Of a stretch of DNA of 64,000 bases, positions 50,020 through 62,364 are shown in pieces. The position numbers and the translations under genes were made by a program. The DNA lies in assembly GCA_963674965.2 (NCBI GenBank), contig CAXXFL010000006.1, forward strand, positions 1,120,001 to 1,184,000, read 5' to 3'. Numbering within the stretch: the stretch's first letter is position 1; each line of letters begins with the position of its first letter. This DNA is from a bacterium (GTDB lineage Bacteria; RBG-13-61-14; DATKZS01). The notes under the pieces were generated by a model, which was not told the DNA's origin, ran no database searches, and was given only the letters and a program-made list of their open reading frames with translations.

Positions 50020-50027
<8 letters not shown>

Positions 50028-50751
50028 CGAACTTGCCGGATAAAAGAGCGTTCCTGGCGGCTTCCTGCTCGGCCTCCTTTTTGCTCTTTCCCTTGCCCAG
50101 GCCGCAGGTTATGCCCTCGACTTTCACCTCGACCTCGAAGGTCTTCATGTGGTCCGGGCCCTGCTCCTCGATGACGCGATAAACGGGAGTGCTTTTATAA
50201 AGGGCCTGGACCCTCTCCTGGAAGGGCGTCTTATAATCGCCCAACAGATCGATGGGAGGAAGGGAATCGAGCAGGGGCTGGAAAAGACGCTCGATGACCT
50301 TGAAGGTCTCGTCGAACCCTCCGTCCAGGTAGATGGCGCCCATAAGCGACTCGAAGGCGTCCTCCAAGATCGAGGTCTTGTCCGCGCCGCCGGTCAGCTT
50401 CTCGCCCTTGCCCAGTCTTAAAGCGTTGCCCAGTCCGAGGTCCCTGGCCAGGTCCGCCAACCTGTCGCAGTTGACGAGCCCAGCCCGAATCCTCGAAAGC
50501 TCTCCCTCCGCCGCGCCGCTGAAACGGAGCATGAGCATATGGGAAACCACCAGCCCGAGGACCGCGTCTCCCAGGAACTCGAGCCGCTCGTAATGGATTT
50601 TTATCATCTCCCTCCCGTCGTCGAGCAGCGACTGGGTGACCTCGTGGGCGAATGACGAGTGCGTCATGGCCCTCTCGAACAGCGCCCCGTTTTTAAAGCG
50701 ATACCCGATCTTGTCCTGGATGACCTCCAGGGACTCGGTATTGTTTCCCAT
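50020..50751 (-). CDS. rnc: Ribonuclease III (possible internal start inside the fusion ORF)
   Basis: YERLEFLGDAVL, EDAFESLMGAIYLDGG and dsRBD DYKT...GPDH...SKKEAEQ; GGAGA 7 nt before ATG 50751. Confidence 0.85.
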
Positions 50752-52116
50752 CCAATTGTCTCCATTCTCCGTGATATTGTATCCAACGCCCGACCGTATC
50801 TGTATCCGGCCGTTCGGCTCGATCTTGTCGCCCCAAAGGGCCGCGCCGTCATGGGAATATATTTCTACTCGATAAATATTGCCTACCATGTCCGCGCCGC
50901 CATTGCATCCGACCCTTAAGTAATTATCGCTCGTCCCGAATATTTTACCGTCCATCTCCGTTTCCCCGAGCGTCTCCAACTCGAAACCAACCTGTTCCTC
51001 CAGGAAAGCGGCCCTCTTCTTTTTGCCCAGCTTCCTGAGCTCGGCGGCGCGGGCCTTGATGGTCTCCGGGTCCAGATGGCCGGGCATGGCGTCGGCCGCC
51101 GTGCCGGTACGCCTGGAATAAGGAAATACGTGAAGATAGGTCACGGGAAGCTCGGTAATAAAATCAAGGCAGTTGGAATGCTCCCTTTCCGTCTCGCCGG
51201 GAAAGCCGGCTATCACGTCCATGCCAAGGCCGGCCCGGGGCATGGCCTCCTTAAGACGCCAGACGGCCCGCCTCACCGCGTCCACCTTATAGGGCCTGCC
51301 CATGCGGGTGAGGACCTCGTCGTCTCCGCTTTGCAGGGGAACGTGGAAATGAGAGCAGAACAATCCTGAATCGGCCGCGGCCTCGATCAGGTCATCGGTC
51401 AACTCCTGCGGCTCGATGGAGGACAGCCTGATCCTGGCGGGCATATCCCGGCTCCCGGCCAGCAGCTTGAGAAGGTCCGAGAGCTTTTTGCCCCATTCCT
51501 TGCCGTAAAGCCCAATATGCACGCCCGTGAGCACGGCCTCGCGAAACCCGGCCCGGGCCACGCCCCGGAGTTGGCGGACCACCTCGGCCATGGGCACGCT
51601 TCGGCTCGGTCCCCTCGCCACGGTGACGATGCAATAGGCGCAGTTGAAATCGCAGCCGTCCTGGATTTTCACCAGGGCCCTGCCCTTTCCCTTTTGCAGC
51701 CCGCCCTCGGGATGATAGAAAACGGGGGACCGGGGAAGGACTTTCCCCGTCAGTAGCTCGATCACCCTCTCCCGCTGGGAGGGCCCGACCGCCGCGTCGG
51801 CCCCCGCCTCGAGGAGCGCCGGGGCGGAAACCTCGGCCAGGCAGCCGGCGGCGATGATCTTCGCGGCGGGGCCGACCCTCCTGGCCCGCCTGATCATCTG
51901 CAGGCACTGCATCTCCCCCCGCCTGGTCACGGCGCAGGTGTTGACCACGTAGGCGGCCGCCTCGACTTCCTCGTCAACCGCTCCTCCCATGTCCACCGCC
52001 AGGAAAGAATCGGCCGGGACCATGGCCATCATGGCCGCGGTGTCGTAGCGGTTGGCCTTGCATCCCAGCGTGATAAAGGCCGCTATCGGGAGTCGCCTCG
52101 AGCCTTCGCTTCCCAT
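50020..52116 (-). CDS. mtaB: tRNA methylthiotransferase MtaB in one reading frame with ribonuclease III
   Basis: TLGCKAN, VNTCAVT, KIQDGCDFNCAYC (radical SAM), HFHVPLQSG and HVFPYS motifs; no stop before the RNase III domain. Confidence 0.85.
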
Positions 52117-53252: not shown

Positions 53253-53524
53253 GACCTCACGGGTGTTATTATGTCCCATCTTTACCGGGATTAGAAGCCC
53301 GGCCGGGGTTGCACGGATGCATATCCGCTCGCCGGGTCGGGCGTCACCGTAGAGTCCGGGTCGGATACCATGGCCTGACATTTTCGACAAAATGTAATTT
53401 TTTTCTATACATGAGAGTAAATTTGTGATAAATTGATAAGACCGAAATTCTGTCACCTCGGTATATCATGCCGGGGTTGCCTTGGAAGCTGCGTTGGAAT
53501 ATGCGCGTAAAGGAGTGCAAGCGG

Positions 53525-54532
53525 GTGGAAAACACGGGTGAAAAGACGGACGAGGTAAAAAAACACGTTCCCCGGAACAGGCTGCTCAAGGCCCCCATCC
53601 GGGTGAGGACCGAAGAAGGCGACCATGACGAGGAGTTCACCGAGTACATGATGGAGGTGGACAAGGACCGCATTTACATCCAGACGGATAATCCCTATAA
53701 AGAGGGCACGGTCCTGCATCTGGGTCTCGACCTTCCCGGGATCAACCGTACCATACACTTCAAGGGCGAGGTGGTAAGGATCAACCCCCACAAGCCCAAA
53801 ACGCCCGAGGACTTAGAGCCCGGCATGGGCATAGTCTTCGAGCGGGTCAGTTTCGACAACCGCAAGCTTATCGCCGACTACCTCGAGAAAATCCAGTCTG
53901 AGGACCGCTCGGAGGATTACTCGGTATTCCTTTCCTGGGTCTCGAAGATCAGCCGTCCCATGTCGCCCAAGGAAAAGGAGAAGATCAAAAAGGACCTCCT
54001 CAAGGTCCTCTATGGCGCCAACAAGGAACCCATCCCGGAGAAGCAAAAGAAAAAGACCCCCGAGGAACTGGAGATCATCGCCAGAATTCCCCTCTTCGAG
54101 GAACTTGACGAGATCGAGATCGAGGAGATGGCCCGCATAATGGCCAAGGAAAAATACCGCGCCGGCGACGGGATTTTCGACGAGGGCGACGTGGGCGACA
54201 AGATGTACCTCATCCTGAAGGGAGCGGTGGACATCATCAAGGACACGGGCAAGGGGCCGGGACAGATACTGGTCACCCTCAAGGCCGGAGACTACTTCGG
54301 CGAGATGTCCCTTATCGACGACGCGCCAAGGTCGGCCTCGGCCATGGCCGGGGAGGAAACCATCCTCCTCAGCATCAACAAGAAGCACCTCAACCTGCTC
54401 CTGGACAACTCGCCCACCATCGCCGCCAAAATCTACAAGTTCTTCGTCGCCGTTCTGAACGACAGGCTCAGGGAAACCAACGATAAAATCAGAAGCTTCG
54501 TCAGCATGGCCCAGGAGATGAGCCAGGCTTAA
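53525..54532 (+). CDS. PilZ-like plus cyclic-nucleotide-binding domain protein
   Basis: N-terminal IYIQT...GEVVR...PGMGIVF (PilZ-like); C-terminal IFDEGD...GDYFGEMSLIDDAPRSA (CNB); AAGGAG SD before GTG. Confidence 0.82.
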   Translation: MENTGEKTDEVKKHVPRNRLLKAPIRVRTEEGDHDEEFTEYMMEVDKDRIYIQTDNPYKEGTVLHLGLDLPGINRTIHFKGEVVRINPHKPKTPEDLEPGMGIVFERVSFDNRKLIADYLEKIQSEDRSEDYSVFLSWVSKISRPMSPKEKEKIKKDLLKVLYGANKEPIPEKQKKKTPEELEIIARIPLFEELDEIEIEEMARIMAKEKYRAGDGIFDEGDVGDKMYLILKGAVDIIKDTGKGPGQILVTLKAGDYFGEMSLIDDAPRSASAMAGEETILLSINKKHLNLLLDNSPTIAAKIYKFFVAVLNDRLRETNDKIRSFVSMAQEMSQA

Positions 54533-54653: not shown

Positions 54654-54684
54654 TTGACATCCCAGGGGGGGGGGGGGGTAGTAT
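54654..54684 (+). promoter_or_regulatory. Sigma70 promoter with a G14 homopolymer in the spacer (putative phase-variable switch)
   Basis: TTGACA 54654-54659; spacer TCCCA+G14 (19 nt); TAGTAT 54679-54684; 66 nt before ATG 54751. Confidence 0.7.
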
Positions 54685-54750: not shown

Positions 54751-56064
54751 ATGAGGGCTAAGATTGGAATGGCGTTGGTTGGAGTTTTGGTTATGGCCGT
54801 GGTGGTGGGGATTGCCTGGGCGCAGTCCGCTCCGCAGCTTATCAATTACCAGGGGCGGCTCACGAACGCGGCGGGGCAGCCGCTTGCGGACGGTACTACC
54901 GTTGATCTGACATTCGCTTTCTATGGAGTTGAAACGGGCGGGACCGCGTACCTCACGGTTTTCCAGGAGGACGTGGTGGTCAATGGCGGTATTTACAACG
55001 TGCTCATCGGCTCCGGTACGGTCACGCCCGGTTCCGAGCCCAACCTGGGCGCTGTCTTCCAGAACCACCAGGACGTGTGGATGGGGGTCGAGGTTGAAAG
55101 CGATGGCGAGATGTCGCCCCGGTCCAGGATCGCCAGCGTGCCTTATGCCTTGAAGGTAGAAGGAGGCTGGCTTACGGCCTTTTACAATAAGAGCGATTAC
55201 GACGGGGACGGTTACTCAAAGGTCGTTGACGGGGCCACGGCCACCACGGATTGCAACGATGTCGACGCCTCCATAAACCCCGGCGCGGCCGAAGTCTGTG
55301 ACGACGGTTTCGATAATGACTGCGACGGCAAGATCGACGGTGATGACCCTGACTGCCAGGGAGGAAGCACTGTCGGCCCAATGGCCCTTATCCCCTCCGG
55401 CTGTTTCAACATGGGCGACGCGTTCAGCGAGGGAAGCAGCGATGAACTTCCGGTGCATAACGTTTGCATCACCTCGGACTTCTACATGGACGTTCATGAG
55501 GTGACCAACTCGGAGTACGCGGCTTGCGTGAGCGGAGGGGGATGCACGGCGCCCGGCTATTCTTCAAGTTATTCTCGCGGCTCTTATTACGGTAATCCGA
55601 CCTATGACAATTTTCCTGTTATCTGGGTTGACTGGAATCAGGCCACGGCCTATTGCGCCTGGGCGGGCAAGAGACTGCCCACCGAGGCCGAGTGGGAGTA
55701 CGCTGCCCGTGGCGGCCTGTCCGGCAAACGCTATCCCTGGGGAGATACAGCTACAGCATGTGTTGACGCAAATTACGATTGGTGTATTGGAGATACCAGC
55801 GAGGTTGAAAGCTATCCTGCTAATGGTTACGGTCTTTATGATGTGGGGGGTAATGTTTATGAATGGGTCAACGACTGGTATCAGAGCGATTACTACAGTA
55901 CAAGTCCCACCAACGATCCTCCCGGTCCCGCGTCAGGTACGTCTCGCGTTTTGCGCGGCGGCTATTGGTTCGGCGCTACGCACGACCTGCGCGTGGCGAA
56001 CCGGGCCGGCACTACGCCTACTCTCCGGAGCTACGACATTGGCTTCCGTTGTGCTGGGGACTGA
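54751..56064 (+). CDS. Secreted FGE-sulfatase (C-type lectin fold) domain protein; putative DGR target
   Basis: Signal peptide; INYQGRL N-terminal domain; DCND...PGAAEVCD..DNDCDG metal-binding repeat; RLPTEAEWEYAARGG, NGYGLYD.GGNVYEW and RGG.W...GFRC motifs. Confidence 0.9.
   Translation: MRAKIGMALVGVLVMAVVVGIAWAQSAPQLINYQGRLTNAAGQPLADGTTVDLTFAFYGVETGGTAYLTVFQEDVVVNGGIYNVLIGSGTVTPGSEPNLGAVFQNHQDVWMGVEVESDGEMSPRSRIASVPYALKVEGGWLTAFYNKSDYDGDGYSKVVDGATATTDCNDVDASINPGAAEVCDDGFDNDCDGKIDGDDPDCQGGSTVGPMALIPSGCFNMGDAFSEGSSDELPVHNVCITSDFYMDVHEVTNSEYAACVSGGGCTAPGYSSSYSRGSYYGNPTYDNFPVIWVDWNQATAYCAWAGKRLPTEAEWEYAARGGLSGKRYPWGDTATACVDANYDWCIGDTSEVESYPANGYGLYDVGGNVYEWVNDWYQSDYYSTSPTNDPPGPASGTSRVLRGGYWFGATHDLRVANRAGTTPTLRSYDIGFRCAGD
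55945..56064 (+). other. Putative DGR variable region (VR)
   Basis: 3' end of the CLec domain; 16 of 20 non-consensus codons end in C/T, as expected from AAY template codons; followed by a hairpin and avd. Confidence 0.65.
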
Positions 56065-56094
56065 TTACTCTTTTGTCCTTTTTAACTCTTACAC

Positions 56095-56122
56095 TTTAAT
56101 GGGGGCGTAAGCCCCCATTAAA
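56095..56122. other. Perfect 12-bp hairpin downstream of the VR (DGR target-recognition hairpin and/or terminator)
   Basis: TTTAATGGGGGC-GTAA-GCCCCCATTAAA. Confidence 0.7.
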
Positions 56123-56134
56123 AAATTTTTAAAA

Positions 56135-56320
56135 ATGAAGAAAGAACTTCCCGCTGTTCAAAAGGCGTATGATCTGTGCAAAGAGGTTTTGCCAAGGGTT
56201 TCAAAGCTTCCAAGAGACGTGAAGTTCACACTGGGAGACCGGATAGCCGACAATTGCCTTGCCGTGCTTGAGATATTGCTTCAGGCCGCCGGCGTTACGT
56301 TTTTCAAGAGGCCTCATTGA
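56135..56320 (+). pseudogene. avd: Truncated DGR accessory protein Avd (four-helix bundle), N-terminal half
   Basis: ELPAVQKAYDL...KLPRDVKFTLGDRI...LEILLQA; the resemblance stops at about residue 51. Confidence 0.75.
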
Positions 56321-56386
56321 TTATCCTCTCACCCCGGCTTACAATAATTTCATGTCAAAGAGGCCAATTAATTGGGGAGAATCTTC

Positions 56387-56635
56387 ATGAAAGACGAGGC
56401 TTTACTGGAGCACATCGTTTTAGACGCCACCGTGATGGCCGGAAAGCCGGTTATTCGCGGGACTCGGCTTACCGTTGATTTCATCCTGAACCTTTTGGCT
56501 CATGGCGCCACCGAGGAAGATATCCTGGCCGAATACAAAAGTCTTTCTAAAGAGGACCTCCGCGCCTGCATTCTGTTCGCGGCCGAGGCCATCAGGAACA
56601 CGGACTTTATGCCGCTGGCCGCTAAAACCGTCTGA
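56387..56635 (+). CDS. DUF433 family antitoxin
   Basis: MAGKPVIRGTRLTV...EDILAEY..LSKEDLRAC motif. Confidence 0.9.
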   Translation: MKDEALLEHIVLDATVMAGKPVIRGTRLTVDFILNLLAHGATEEDILAEYKSLSKEDLRACILFAAEAIRNTDFMPLAAKTV

Positions 56636-56745
56636 TGAAATTCATGGTGGAAGAATGTACGGATCCAGCCGTAGCCTCCTGGCTACGATAGCAAAATCAC
56701 GAGGTATTTTCGGTTTTCGACCAGGCCAAGGGCGCGAATTGGTGA
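56635..56745 (+). pseudogene. DUF5615 PIN-like toxin remnant
   Basis: ATG overlaps the DUF433 stop; MKFMVEECTDPAVASWLR*QNHEVFSVFDQAKG with TAG at 56689, then truncated. Confidence 0.75.
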
Positions 56746-56777
56746 TTGAAAAGGGCGCTCGACCAGCTTCCCGCCGT

Positions 56778-57186
56778 TCAAGGGAAGTATCTATATAAAT
56801 CCTTGCGGTGTAAAAAGCGGACAAAGATTACGGTATCTCCTTCCAAAGTGAATCCCAACCTGTAATCTCCTATCCTGATCCTGTAATGCCCGCCGCTGGA
56901 CGTCAGCTTTTTCATTAGCCTCTTGAAAAAGTCCCGCTTTGGAGTGCGGCGGCTCGACGCCGCTTTTCTTCCGAGCGGCTTGACGCGAGGCTGGCCGTTT
57001 TATTGTAAGGCCTTGTCAAGCCAAGGCCATCGAAAGCGGTCTCAAGCGACCGCGCTCCAAAGCGGCTATGCCGCCAAGAAAAGGACTTTCGCAAAAAATT
57101 CTCATATTACCGATTTGCGCGCTGTTTTCCGCTTGCTTGACAATATCGATGGTTTTACGCGCGCGCCCTTTGTAATCAACCTTCAA
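56778..57186 (-). pseudogene. RelE/ParE-family toxin interrupted by a MITE
   Basis: MKVDYK...KQAENSAQIGNM [insert] KKLTSSGGHYRIRIGDYRLGFTLEGDTVIFVRFLHRKDLYRYFP. Confidence 0.8.
56916..57101. mobile_element. 186-bp MITE carrying an inverted REP-like pair
   Basis: TCAT direct repeats 56912-56915 and 57102-57105; imperfect 19-bp TIRs ending AAAGTCC; internal CTTTGGAGTGCGG...CCGCGCTCCAAAG. Confidence 0.75.
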
Positions 57187-57194
57187 GCGGCGCC

Positions 57195-57392
57195 TCAGAG
57201 AGCTTTCAAGACTTCATCTTCCGAGACTGAATCGGTGTTTATTCCCTCTTCAATGGCATTGGCCATTGCAAAATCCTCGATTACTTCGGCCATCACCTCG
57301 TAAAACAAGTCCCGGCGTTCAGACGGGGCTTCCAGGACCGCCTCCTTTAGAAGCTCCTTGATTCTTTCCTCGCCAAACAATTGTTCAGCCAT
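57195..57392 (-). CDS. Putative antitoxin of the RelE-like toxin
   Basis: Small acidic protein (EVIEDFAMANAIEEG...VSEDEV) directly upstream of the toxin; AAGGAGG SD. Confidence 0.7.
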   Translation of the reverse strand: MAEQLFGEERIKELLKEAVLEAPSERRDLFYEVMAEVIEDFAMANAIEEGINTDSVSEDEVLKAL

Positions 57393-59404: not shown

Positions 59405-59647
59405 CGAAAAATCACTTGTAATAGGGGAACTTTGCGGGATATACTGACAACATGAAGCCAACACTGAGCCGGAAAATTTATTTGATTTTGCCGCCATTTT
59501 TTTTTATTATCATTTTATGTCTGGACCAGTACATTTCATTTATTTGGAACGCAAAAGCTTCAGACGCAAAATTCATCAATCTCGAGATTCAGCGATTTCA
59601 GGAGTGCCATCTCCAAAAATATGAAATATACTCCGAGGGTTTAGTTA

Positions 59648-61411
59648 GTTCCAGTTGCGTAACTAGAAAAAGCCAATAAAAACAATGTGCTGTAAGCATT
59701 TTTCGCTTCCCTTTTTGGTCTTGTTATGATACAATAACTCCTTGAAAAATCAAGGATTGACTTGCCGGGATGCTGTGAAGGGGGCGAAAAATGCGACCGA
59801 AAATTAAAATGCAAATGACCATTGAAGACCACGAATTTTTGAAAGCGGGCCATCTTTTCAAACAAGACACTGAGCTTGAGAAGATGAGCATAGCGCTCGA
59901 CGAGGCCAAGGAAATTCTGGAAGCTGTTGCCGATGATCTCCAAAGCGGACTCAAGGAGACCGGCGCCGAGGGGATGAGCGTCGAGCAGGTCCTTAGGAGC
60001 GCGGTCATCTATCAACTCAAGTGTTATTCCTACCGGGAACTCGGCGACCGCCTCGGTTCCGATTACAATTTCCGCAAGTTCACCAGGTTCTTCGGGCGGG
60101 ACATTCCCCATTTCAGCAGCCTGGAGCGGGCGATAAAACGCATCCGCCCCGAGACCTGGGAGCGGATCAACGAAATGCTCGTGGCCCTGGCCATTAAAAA
60201 AAAAGTAGAAGACGGCGAGGCGGTCCGCGCTGACACCGCGGTGGCCGAGGCCAACATCCACTATCCGACCGACGCTTCGCTTCTTTTTGACAGCATCCGT
60301 GTATTGGACCGGTTGATGAAAGGAGCGCGGAAGGAGCTGCCGGGTCTCGGGTTCGAATATCATGACCGGACTCGGCGGGCCAAGAAGCGCGCTTACCAGA
60401 TCGCCATGGGCAAAGGCAAAGGGATCGAGAAGAAACGGGCGGTCTGGTACCGGGACCTTCTCAAGGTTTCGGCGGAAATCTTGGCCATGGCCCGCTCGGC
60501 GCGGGAGGCGCTGGACGAGGCCCTTAAAGGCGGAGAGCTTTATTTCAGCGATGCGGGCCTGGCAACCATGATCAAGAGCGAACTCGATCATTACCTGCCG
60601 CTTTCTGAGCAGTGCGTCGAGCAGTGCGAGCGGCGGGTTATAAAAGGCGAGAAGGTTCCCGCGCAAGAGAAGGTGGTTTCCGTTTTCGAGCCGCACGTTG
60701 ATATCATCCGGAGAGGCAAGACCATGAGCCCGACCGAGTTCGGTCACAAGGTGATGGCGGCGACGGGAAGGTCGGGGATTGTGCTTCAATATAAAGTGTG
60801 CGAGGGCAACCCTTCCGACGCCGACCTTTTCGAGGACATTTTGCAAAAACACGTCCGCCTGTTCGGCAAGGCTCCACGCGAGTTTACCGGCGACCGCCGC
60901 TTCTATCATGAGGACAATGAGAAGCTTGCGACCGAAGGTCCTTATTATATCGAGCGCCTGGCCATTCCCAAGCCCGGCAAAAGGAGTTCGGAGCGGATCG
61001 AGCACGAGCGTCAGCGCTGGTTCAAGAAGCTTCTTCGCTTCCGGGCCGGGATCGAGGGCGGCCTTTCCGCCCTTCTTCGCGGCTTCGGTCTGAGCCGATG
61101 CCTGTGGAGAGGTTTCGAGAGCTTCAAGTCCTGGGTGGGTCTTTCGTTCTTTGCCTGGAACCTTCGAAAACTCGCGCTGCTGACTTAGCCGCCGCCGGGC
61201 GCGCCCCTGTGGGGGCAATGAAAAACGGAAATGAAAAACAGCAAAAGGAGAGGTGTTTTTTGAAAGGATAGAAAAGGGCCGGCTCAGGCATTCAACTCGC
61301 CTGAAAGCGTTAAAATCTTTTCCGTCCTTTATGGACGCCCTGAAAATCTGCATGTCCATATCCTCTCCGCACCGCATAATGAAAGCCATTAAGCAGTTGT
61401 GCAACAGAAAC
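59648..61411 (+). mobile_element. Complete insertion sequence (ISNCY/IS5-like), 1764 bp
   Basis: 17-bp TIRs GTTCCAGTTGCGTAACT / GTTTCTGTTGCACAACT (13/17); TAGTTA direct repeats 59642-59647 and 61412-61417. Confidence 0.85.
59791..61188 (+). CDS. DDE transposase (ISNCY/IS5-like)
   Basis: RADTAVAEANIHYPTD, EKVVSVFEPH, EFGHK, GDRRF and FRAGIEGGLS motifs. Confidence 0.9.
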   Translation: MRPKIKMQMTIEDHEFLKAGHLFKQDTELEKMSIALDEAKEILEAVADDLQSGLKETGAEGMSVEQVLRSAVIYQLKCYSYRELGDRLGSDYNFRKFTRFFGRDIPHFSSLERAIKRIRPETWERINEMLVALAIKKKVEDGEAVRADTAVAEANIHYPTDASLLFDSIRVLDRLMKGARKELPGLGFEYHDRTRRAKKRAYQIAMGKGKGIEKKRAVWYRDLLKVSAEILAMARSAREALDEALKGGELYFSDAGLATMIKSELDHYLPLSEQCVEQCERRVIKGEKVPAQEKVVSVFEPHVDIIRRGKTMSPTEFGHKVMAATGRSGIVLQYKVCEGNPSDADLFEDILQKHVRLFGKAPREFTGDRRFYHEDNEKLATEGPYYIERLAIPKPGKRSSERIEHERQRWFKKLLRFRAGIEGGLSALLRGFGLSRCLWRGFESFKSWVGLSFFAWNLRKLALLT

Positions 61412-61414
61412 TAG

Positions 61415-62364
61415 TTAACGGGAAACATCGATATTTTATGCATTAACTGCGAAGGAGATCTTGTAGTCGTAGAGCTAAAGAAGAAAAAGACTCCAAGGGA
61501 GGTTGTAGCCCAGGCCCTTGATTATTGCGCCTGCATCAAGGATTGGCCGAACGAAAAAGTGTTGGACGTTGCATCGAATCTTTATCAAAATGAGGACGGA
61601 TTCATCAAGGCTTTCCGCTCTAAGTTCGAGACAGAAGGCATTCCAGAAGTTCTTAACAACCAACAGAAAATCTATATAATGGGAGCTGAGATCGACGCCA
61701 CAACTGAAAGGATCATCGAGTATCTATCAGATGTTTATGGCGTTGGAATAAACGCGGCAACATTCCAGATGTTCAAGGGAAAAGCTGGTGCTTTCATGAC
61801 AAGAATTTATACAAAGACGCCTGAAGAGGTTGATTATAGCGCCAAGACGAAACACAAAAGTAAAAAGACACCACCTCCAACTATAGAGATGTTCCAAGAG
61901 GCGGCAAAGAAGGCCGGCTTTGAGGAAGTCTATAATCACCTATTTGAATGGGCTAGTTATGAATTTGATACCATTCACAGAAGAAAAGCTAGTGTTGCTT
62001 TTAATCTCGAAAAAGCAGTTGTTTTTAACCTTTCGCCCTTTCCGGAATGGAGCGATCCAGAATACGGTCTTAATGCCGGTATTTACGTTGATAGGCTAGC
62101 AAAATATTGTGATGTTAAAAGCGAGGTAATAATGAAATATATTCCAAAAGAAATCGAGAAAGTGGAGTTGAATGAATATGAAGCCAATTTTTATGGGGCC
62201 TATTATCAGGTTTGGTTTAAGACAATGGATGAAGCGGAGAAGTTTACCAAAGGTATCACAAATCTTTTCAGAAAAGTGGAAGGGGGAGGCAATATTGTGA
62301 AATATAATCCAAATTGCGCAATAAATCAACGCTGCTTAACACTGTTAATTTGTCTACATTGCAA
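61415..62364 (+). pseudogene. 5'-truncated NucS/DUF91-like PD-(D/E)XK nuclease
   Basis: Frame upstream of ORF 61559 reads GNIDILCINCEGDLVVVELKKKKTPREVVAQALDY; no N-terminus; the 3' end runs into an IS4 end. Confidence 0.7.

Follow-up and report, generated by a model that had tools for sequence, protein, structure and literature searches.

The closest described counterparts of the locus reported here are the DGRs of Treponema denticola and Bordetella phage BPP-1, the MAT fibres of Bdellovibrio and the partly decayed DGRs of Thiohalocapsa PB-PSB1. In T. denticola, one RT and TR serve several distant FGE-type CLec targets, TvpA among them (PMC4891356, PMC5758913). The core is chromosomal there, most targets are lipoproteins, and both remote FGE targets and targets left over after loss of the core have been described (PMC4891356). 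The BPP-1 system (mtd-avd-TR-brt) is prophage-borne, and its GC-rich hairpin, whose loop has 4 nt, is found within 4-34 nt of the VR, the loop consensus of phage DGRs being GRNA (PMC3240598). MAT proteins are trimers that occur as many paralogues with different tips, and their beta-rich domain of ~110-130 aa directly follows the signal peptide and is without a clear solved homologue. An FGE tip is listed for one of them, and DGRs appear in the main text only as a reference title, with Mtd as a structural homologue (PMC10769870, Caulton et al. 2024). In PB-PSB1, targets and partial systems have been duplicated within the genome and redundant parts have decayed (10.1101/2023.09.22.558884). In addition, DGRs have been reported on pilus adhesins, in a text whose available part uses neither 'remote' nor 'in trans' (10.1101/2024.11.15.621889), and an exchange of DGRs between cells and prophages has been suggested (10.1101/2020.04.01.020958).

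We analysed a 64,000-nt stretch of bacterial DNA (the window), which contains a gene with a variable region (VR) at its 3' end, and compared it with the remainder of the genome. Our main reading, to which we assign a probability of about 0.78, is that this gene is a remote target of the one intact DGR of the genome, that its relic locus has been synchronised with this DGR by gene conversion and that its product is a MAT-like trimer. A remote FGE/CLec target is of a known kind; what sets this case apart is the prophage machinery, the conversion-matched relic, the MAT-like carrier and the relics filled with toxin-antitoxin (TA) genes. As in T. denticola, there are FGE-type CLec targets, a single RT and template (TR), several distant targets and leftover targets, and the TvpA structure 2Y3C matches the window protein (E 4e-26). 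Unlike in T. denticola, the core has a prophage as its insertion site, the base of the target is MAT_N-like, and avd stumps are followed by TA pairs. Prophage-borne avd and RT, an IMH-like end and a GC-rich hairpin with a 4-nt loop close to the VR are shared with BPP-1, whereas the order is target-avd-RT-TR, the loop is GTAA rather than GRNA, a secreted protein of a host family serves as target instead of a tail fibre, and targets lie outside the phage. The decay in PB-PSB1 involves MITEs and transposons in a genome with several RTs (10.1101/2023.09.22.558884), whereas here there is one RT and the lost core is occupied by TA pairs.

The variable region and its template

The features of the target gene that bear on diversification are as follows.

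54751-56064, + strand: target gene, 437 aa, 94% identical in amino acid sequence to the target of the prophage cassette
55939-56064, + strand: VR, with 25 of 25 mismatches at template A
56044-56064, + strand: IMH-like 3' end, 21 nt that are the same in VR and TR, with divergence beyond
56095-56122, + strand: target hairpin with a 12-bp stem and a GTAA loop, the same as that of the cassette

A preliminary description, made from the window alone, had proposed a VR with an adenine-mutagenesis footprint and a missing template. When VR-like copies were sought by BLAST (word size 7) against the whole genome, as that description had suggested, the best template-like match adjoined an RT and differed only at A. 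The template is absent from the window, as had been stated, and present elsewhere in the genome (G000:C6:952324-952199, - strand; G000 denotes this genome). It is non-coding and AAC-rich and begins at the stop codon of the RT. Over the 126 nt compared, which include 41 A in the TR, all 25 mismatches fall on template A (A to G, 12; A to C, 7; A to T, 6); the chance of this with randomly placed mismatches is 6e-16. Differences at all four bases, which would have spoken against a DGR, were not seen, the mismatches being confined to adenines. The 85 non-A template positions are all unchanged in the window VR, and the caveat that a GC-rich codon bias might produce the NNY pattern is therefore excluded. 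The segment 55939-56064 is thus confirmed as a DGR variable region.

Several details of the preliminary description need adjustment. The region it had marked is real, but its true 5' end lies 6 nt earlier (55939 instead of 55945). The stretch from RGG to GFRC has 26 codons, 18 of which are NNY (16 of 20 non-consensus codons had been counted), and 14 of the 16 NNY codons that had been named stand over template AAC or AAT, the other two over ACT and ATA. The predicted TR was right except at GTA, GCA and GGA, for which GTG, GCG and GGC had been given; all three errors are third-position (wobble) adenines. The TR contains 14 AAY codons, and its 22 codons with an amino-acid choice correspond to about 10^21 proteins.

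The 21-nt 3' end presumably serves as the IMH. The hairpin had been described correctly, 30 nt past the stop codon (z -4.7; 0 of 200 shuffles), and the sister hairpin in the relative G001 keeps the stem with different bases. Its loop lies outside the GRNA consensus of phage DGRs (PMC3240598), and the target of the cassette itself has the same GTAA loop. Beyond the preliminary description, our analysis identified the avd stump after the hairpin, the prophage site of the machinery, the conversion tract and the MAT-like N-terminal domain.

The DGR cassette and its prophage setting

The cassette has the order promoter-target-hairpin-avd-RT-TR-spacer-terminator. Its RT (358 aa, stop-free; PHROG 1423, E 4e-122) contains GNLTSQ and YVDD, the motifs that mark DGR RTs, and Avd (114 aa) matches NF033474 with 98 bits, above the cut-off of 80. 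No second DGR-type RT was found in the genome, two other RVT_1 matches being group II intron fragments. The cassette is located in a prophage at ~915-986 kb, with the genes for head, tail sheath and tape measure on one side and those for portal, terminase and integrase on the other. The major head (1e-84) and portal (3e-62) genes lie within 10 kb of it, one on each side, and by PHROG profiles, which we used in place of Wu's BLAST set, it is phage-associated under the conservative rule of phage structural genes on both sides with E < 1e-20 (PMC5758913). A search for the att sites of the prophage yielded one 15-nt repeat (E 0.1), which was not accepted. The prophage also encodes, at the head-scaffold position, a 1,291-aa protein with two DNA methyltransferase modules (G000:C6:948024-951899) that is conserved in related phages.

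The window gene lies ~190 kb outside this prophage, and its placement within another prophage was rejected, since 0 of 19 neighbouring proteins match a phage structural family. The distance between RT and VR is 222,539 nt on the same contig.

We compared 80 related viral loci, 38 of which cover both genes flanking the cassette. RT, avd and target are absent between the flanking genes in all 38; the gap is 165-369 nt in 32 of them, compared with 3,343 nt here, and the other six contain 1.2-4.3 kb of other DNA. The best viral relative of the RT is only 41% identical, whereas RT stumps that are 80-97% identical occur in two of four genomes of the same family. Close metagenomic RTs, where located on longer contigs, are surrounded by cellular genes. 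Because the phage sites are empty, the viral RT is distant and the RT stumps of the family are close, a native phage gene was rejected and the cassette seems to stem from the host lineage and to have entered the phage from there.

Gene conversion and probable rewriting in trans

The window gene and the cassette target share the following segment.

55087-56206, + strand: gene-conversion tract, identical in the window and the prophage cassette outside the VR

The tract is 1.12 kb long and carries the IMH-like end, the hairpin and the first 72 nt of avd. Outside the VR, 0/852 and 0/142 nt differ on its two sides (0/994 in all), compared with 38/336 nt upstream and 20/71 nt downstream of it. The two VRs differ at 29 sites, 28 of which are at template A; they differ inside otherwise identical DNA, and at least one of them was rewritten after the conversion. 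Since its IMH-like end and hairpin are now identical to those of the cassette, the window locus should be a usable target.

Wu 2018 defined a remote target as one with only A-to-N differences, >100 kb from the RT and outside another complete DGR (PMC5758913). The window gene is such a target, as there is no RT or TR at its locus. We compared 18 FGE-type ends with the TR, a few distant ones of which could not be aligned in register. Non-A mismatches number 0 in the window, 1 in the cassette target and 0 in a third gene (C2:337085), 7-10 at four further loci and at least 19 in the rest. An adenine bias by itself was rejected as proof for the older paralogues, because distant ones show it too (23/52, 24/47). 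C2:337085 has 23 A mismatches to the TR; its flanks differ from those of the cassette at 6/48 nt upstream and 9/30 nt downstream, and it has no hairpin. Because its flanks differ and the hairpin is absent, it is the best sign of action in trans in this genome.

This bears on an alternative that we consider unlikely, namely that the RT rewrites the cassette target only and that conversion handed the window gene an allele diversified beforehand, as a kind of allele archive. The tract extends past both ends of the VR, which may therefore be an allele copied with it, and the differences to the G001 stump (12/72 versus 5/55) are compatible with either direction of conversion. However, the window has the IMH and hairpin of the cassette target, C2:337085 fits the TR exactly without shared flanks, and the action of avd, TR and RT in trans is reported as experimentally shown (PMC5758913). 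We prefer the main reading, in which the window copy would itself be rewritten in trans. Wu 2018 expected phage-associated DGRs to be without targets >100 kb away, and every DGR with remote targets in that study except one was without phage evidence (PMC5758913); the two exactly matching chromosomal targets found here are a clear exception to this expectation.

Several further loci are of interest. A target paralogue (G000:C4:79326-80648) continues without a break into 95 nt with 85% identity to the 3' spacer of the TR, and C4:79326-80743 looks like a cassette collapsed by VR-TR recombination (loop-out), the fused spacer being the one piece of evidence for this. A DDE insertion sequence in the window (59642-61420) has 16 other near-identical matches in the genome; the insertion sequence shared by the surroundings of two targets was rejected as a special link, as it occurs at 16 other places. 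In a genome of the same class (G012:C23:17914-21246), we found a DGR of the order target-avd-TR-RT with 20 of 20 mismatches at A, the RT of which reaches the contig end.

A relic cassette filled with toxin-antitoxin genes

Downstream of the hairpin, the window contains the following elements.

56135-56320, + strand: avd stump of 61 codons, about 52 of them homologous; a mosaic
56387-56745, + strand: DUF433 antitoxin gene and broken DUF5615/PIN gene, in place of avd-RT-TR
56767-56781, + strand: second avd-start-like piece (14/15 nt)
56778-57392, - strand: ParE-like toxin fragment and RelB-like antitoxin gene

At the window locus, an older chromosomal cassette survives as a remnant that has lost its avd-RT-TR core and has TA genes in its place. 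The first 72 nt of the avd stump are identical to the prophage avd, and the remainder is of an older type common to relatives: past 56206 it has 5/55 differences to G001 but 14/55 to the cassette avd, and it is 28% different (20/71 nt) from the prophage avd. The genome contains three matches to the avd start, namely those of the two avd copies and the piece at 56767-56781, and the DUF433 gene is the only one found in it. Upstream of the target, a gene for a protein with PilZ and cNMP-binding domains (53468-54532) is kept in four of four family genomes, in none of which it is followed by a target.

The stump shows that a cassette once stood here, and the VR could have been written by the lost RT and TR of this locus, its match to the present TR being due to descent only. 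Leftover targets are described in Treponema (PMC4891356), and other paralogues have decayed, with 7-10 non-A mismatches at four loci. Nevertheless, a perfect non-A match by descent is unlikely, because 28% of the positions in the older portion of the stump deviate from the prophage avd, and identity to the present TR is 82% for the only complete TR that a relative yielded (G002:C9), and we regard this explanation as very improbable. Still less credible is an assembly artefact, in which the identical tract or the second copy would stem from collapse or cross-polishing of diverged paralogues: there are two near-identical 1.1-kb stretches in a metagenome-type assembly and no listed read piece spans the whole stretch, but in two short-read runs from one sample, perhaps the source sample, 55056-55687 forms one contig with a depth of 34 and 38 compared with 16-21 in the unique flanks, deviating at 0 and 1 letters, and 56177-56700 is covered without difference by a unique contig. 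The doubled depth over the tract argues against an artefact. These contig-level read data, in which the paralogues and TR overlap the VR, do not separate VR variants, and no variants of G-run length were distinguished in them.

TA genes recur at such sites. Among the 12 avd-stump sites counted in G000-G003, one of them read by eye, 8 have a type II TA pair directly after the stump; the genomes are kin, not independent, and the assemblies fragmented. Five different pairs are involved, one orthologous HicBA being common to three sites, and at four sites the TA pair is followed by part of the TR spacer or of its terminator. Among the 45 HicA matches found in five genomes, we examined 30; nine of them are no more than 1.5 kb away from an avd or spacer piece, as is the case for all five in G002. 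For comparison, 39 of 80 RT-bearing metagenomic loci had enough flank, and a TA gene is located within 1.6 kb after the RT in three of these 39; some TA adjacency therefore exists before decay. Our best guess is that TA modules were inserted into a dispensable core, followed by deletion. In the literature searched, by title and with few subscription papers, we found no relevant report of TA-filled DGR relics, in which TA pairs repeatedly take the place of avd-RT-TR.

Further remnants are found in G002. G002:C9:336-1996 consists of a target, a hairpin with a small repeat element inside, a complete TR, spacer, terminator and HicBA, with avd and RT deleted; its VR differs from its own TR at 23 sites, 22 of them at A. 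On G002:C212, C244 and C324, avd-start, HicBA and spacer/terminator pieces alternate; the arrangement resembles TA cassettes in tandem with DGR remnants at their borders, and its full reconstruction is cut off by contig ends.

The target protein

The target begins with a signal-peptide-like stretch (first 24 residues, by eye), followed by these domains.

54823-55155, + strand: N-terminal beta-sandwich, MAT_N-like (NF053851, E 2.3e-8, 34 bits, cut-off 60)
55249-55338, + strand: PF11617 (MopE-type) repeat, from Pfam
55381-56055, + strand: FGE-sulfatase/CLec-fold domain, from Pfam, alignment and fold; without the catalytic cysteine pair

The NF053851 (Bdello_MAT_N) match covers profile positions 4-95 of 162, and Pfam gave no match for residues 25-135. 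Bdello_MAT_N also matches 32 of the 39 relatives that were aligned; in this genome it has matches at 22 places, compared with none in 14 control genomes. Every one of these matches scores under the curated cut-off, the best reaching 43.8 of 60 bits. The domain appears to be distantly related to the base of the Bdellovibrio MAT fibres, with a match below the family cut-off. The genome has 32 MAT_N-like secreted ORFs with varied tips, 9 of them FGE, some with the domain interrupted by an insertion or near the C-terminus. The closest named relative of the domain (80%) carries a Desulfobacterales label. A profile of the domain finds 76,089 clusters. Among 54 longer proteins picked from the top 150 matches, 19 have an S74 chaperone, 16 collagen, 8 YadA heads and 15 no family; the S74, collagen and YadA architectures are those given for MAT fibres (PMC10769870).

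The domain was modelled as a beta-sandwich (pLDDT 87). Fold searches gave no clear solved match (best Z 6.6), and a search of the ESM Atlas returned unnamed clusters only. A homotrimer model of the domain scored 0.90 compared with 0.13 for the best control, with contacts that agree in at least 92% and a pLDDT of at least 90 in the trimer runs. Of the solved homodimers, 20 of 30 attained the mark applied, as did 1 of 23 single chains; for three copies these counts are a rough guide. The modelling thus supports a trimer. A linker of about 75 residues, with one short helix and the MopE-type repeat, connects base and tip, and no collagen, beta-helix or S74 stalk was found in the protein. The C-terminal domain folds like FGE and TvpA; the FGE catalytic cysteines, already not evident to the preliminary description, are both absent after RGG in an alignment with Streptomyces FGE (6MUJ/2Q17). 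Most likely, the gene encodes not an enzyme but a short, secreted, MAT-like trimer with three hypervariable CLec binding heads; this trimer would be displayed on the cell surface and act in adhesion.

With Bdellovibrio MAT it shares a beta-rich domain directly after the signal peptide that lacks a clear solved homologue and many paralogues with different tips (32 ORFs, 9 FGE), and it may share the trimer, which is a model here; unlike MAT, it scores below the family cut-off, has only 437 aa and is without a fibre stalk (PMC10769870). It probably works like a short MAT, but because it has no stalk we do not file it as a family member. This likeness does not imply predation by the host.

Promoters with poly-G runs

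54654-54684, + strand: sigma-70-like promoter with a G14 run (54665-54678) between -35 and -10

The spacer of this promoter is 19 nt long, compared with 16, 11, 16, 11 and 17 nt in five paralogues; that of the cassette copy is 16 nt. A consensus scan found no promoter with a 16-18 nt spacer at the window locus. G/C runs of at least 12 nt number only four in 6.5 Mb, of which two belong to these targets and one more lies in the spacer of a different promoter. In phase-variable promoters of the porA type, the poly-G length varies in the population and alters expression. Control by slippage of the G14 run is plausible, and the 19-nt spacer may cause low expression. No relevant report of a DGR combined with homopolymer phase variation was found in the literature searched, which included few subscription papers. 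A G16 run between -35 and -10 hexamers (G000:C5:167889-167921), upstream of an unrelated secreted-looking protein, is a further candidate slippage promoter.

A model for remote diversification

Following the Bordetella mechanism, Avd-RT would make a cDNA copy of the TR RNA that is error-prone at adenines, and this copy would take the place of the VR in any gene whose IMH and hairpin match. At the window locus, an older chromosomal cassette has lost its avd-RT-TR core and has TA genes in that place, and a recent 1.12-kb gene conversion has made the 3' end, IMH and hairpin identical to those of the prophage cassette. The mutated product would present 22 variable codons, or about 10^21 sequences, on each of three CLec heads. 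A relic cassette combined with gene conversion offers a route by which a remote target may arise and stay matched to its TR, and the phage may supply the bacterium's own adhesins with targeted mutation. If the MAT link is true, fibre-type adhesins that swap tips would gain antibody-scale variation at the tip, and the binding partners of these uncultured bacteria would become a testable question. The literature searched, with few subscription papers, yielded no relevant report of a DGR with gene conversion in trans or with MAT fibres.

More tentatively, and in our view doubtfully, lysogeny might act as a mutator switch: a host-lineage DGR in a prophage would rewrite the CLec tips of chromosomal MAT-like trimers whose own cassettes are gutted and TA-filled, conversion would recruit the relics, and poly-G promoters would choose the displayed variant.

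Elsewhere in the window, an ORF at 50020-52116 appears, by eye, to combine a MiaB/MtaB-like methylthiotransferase with RNase III in one frame, and could be two genes in frame.
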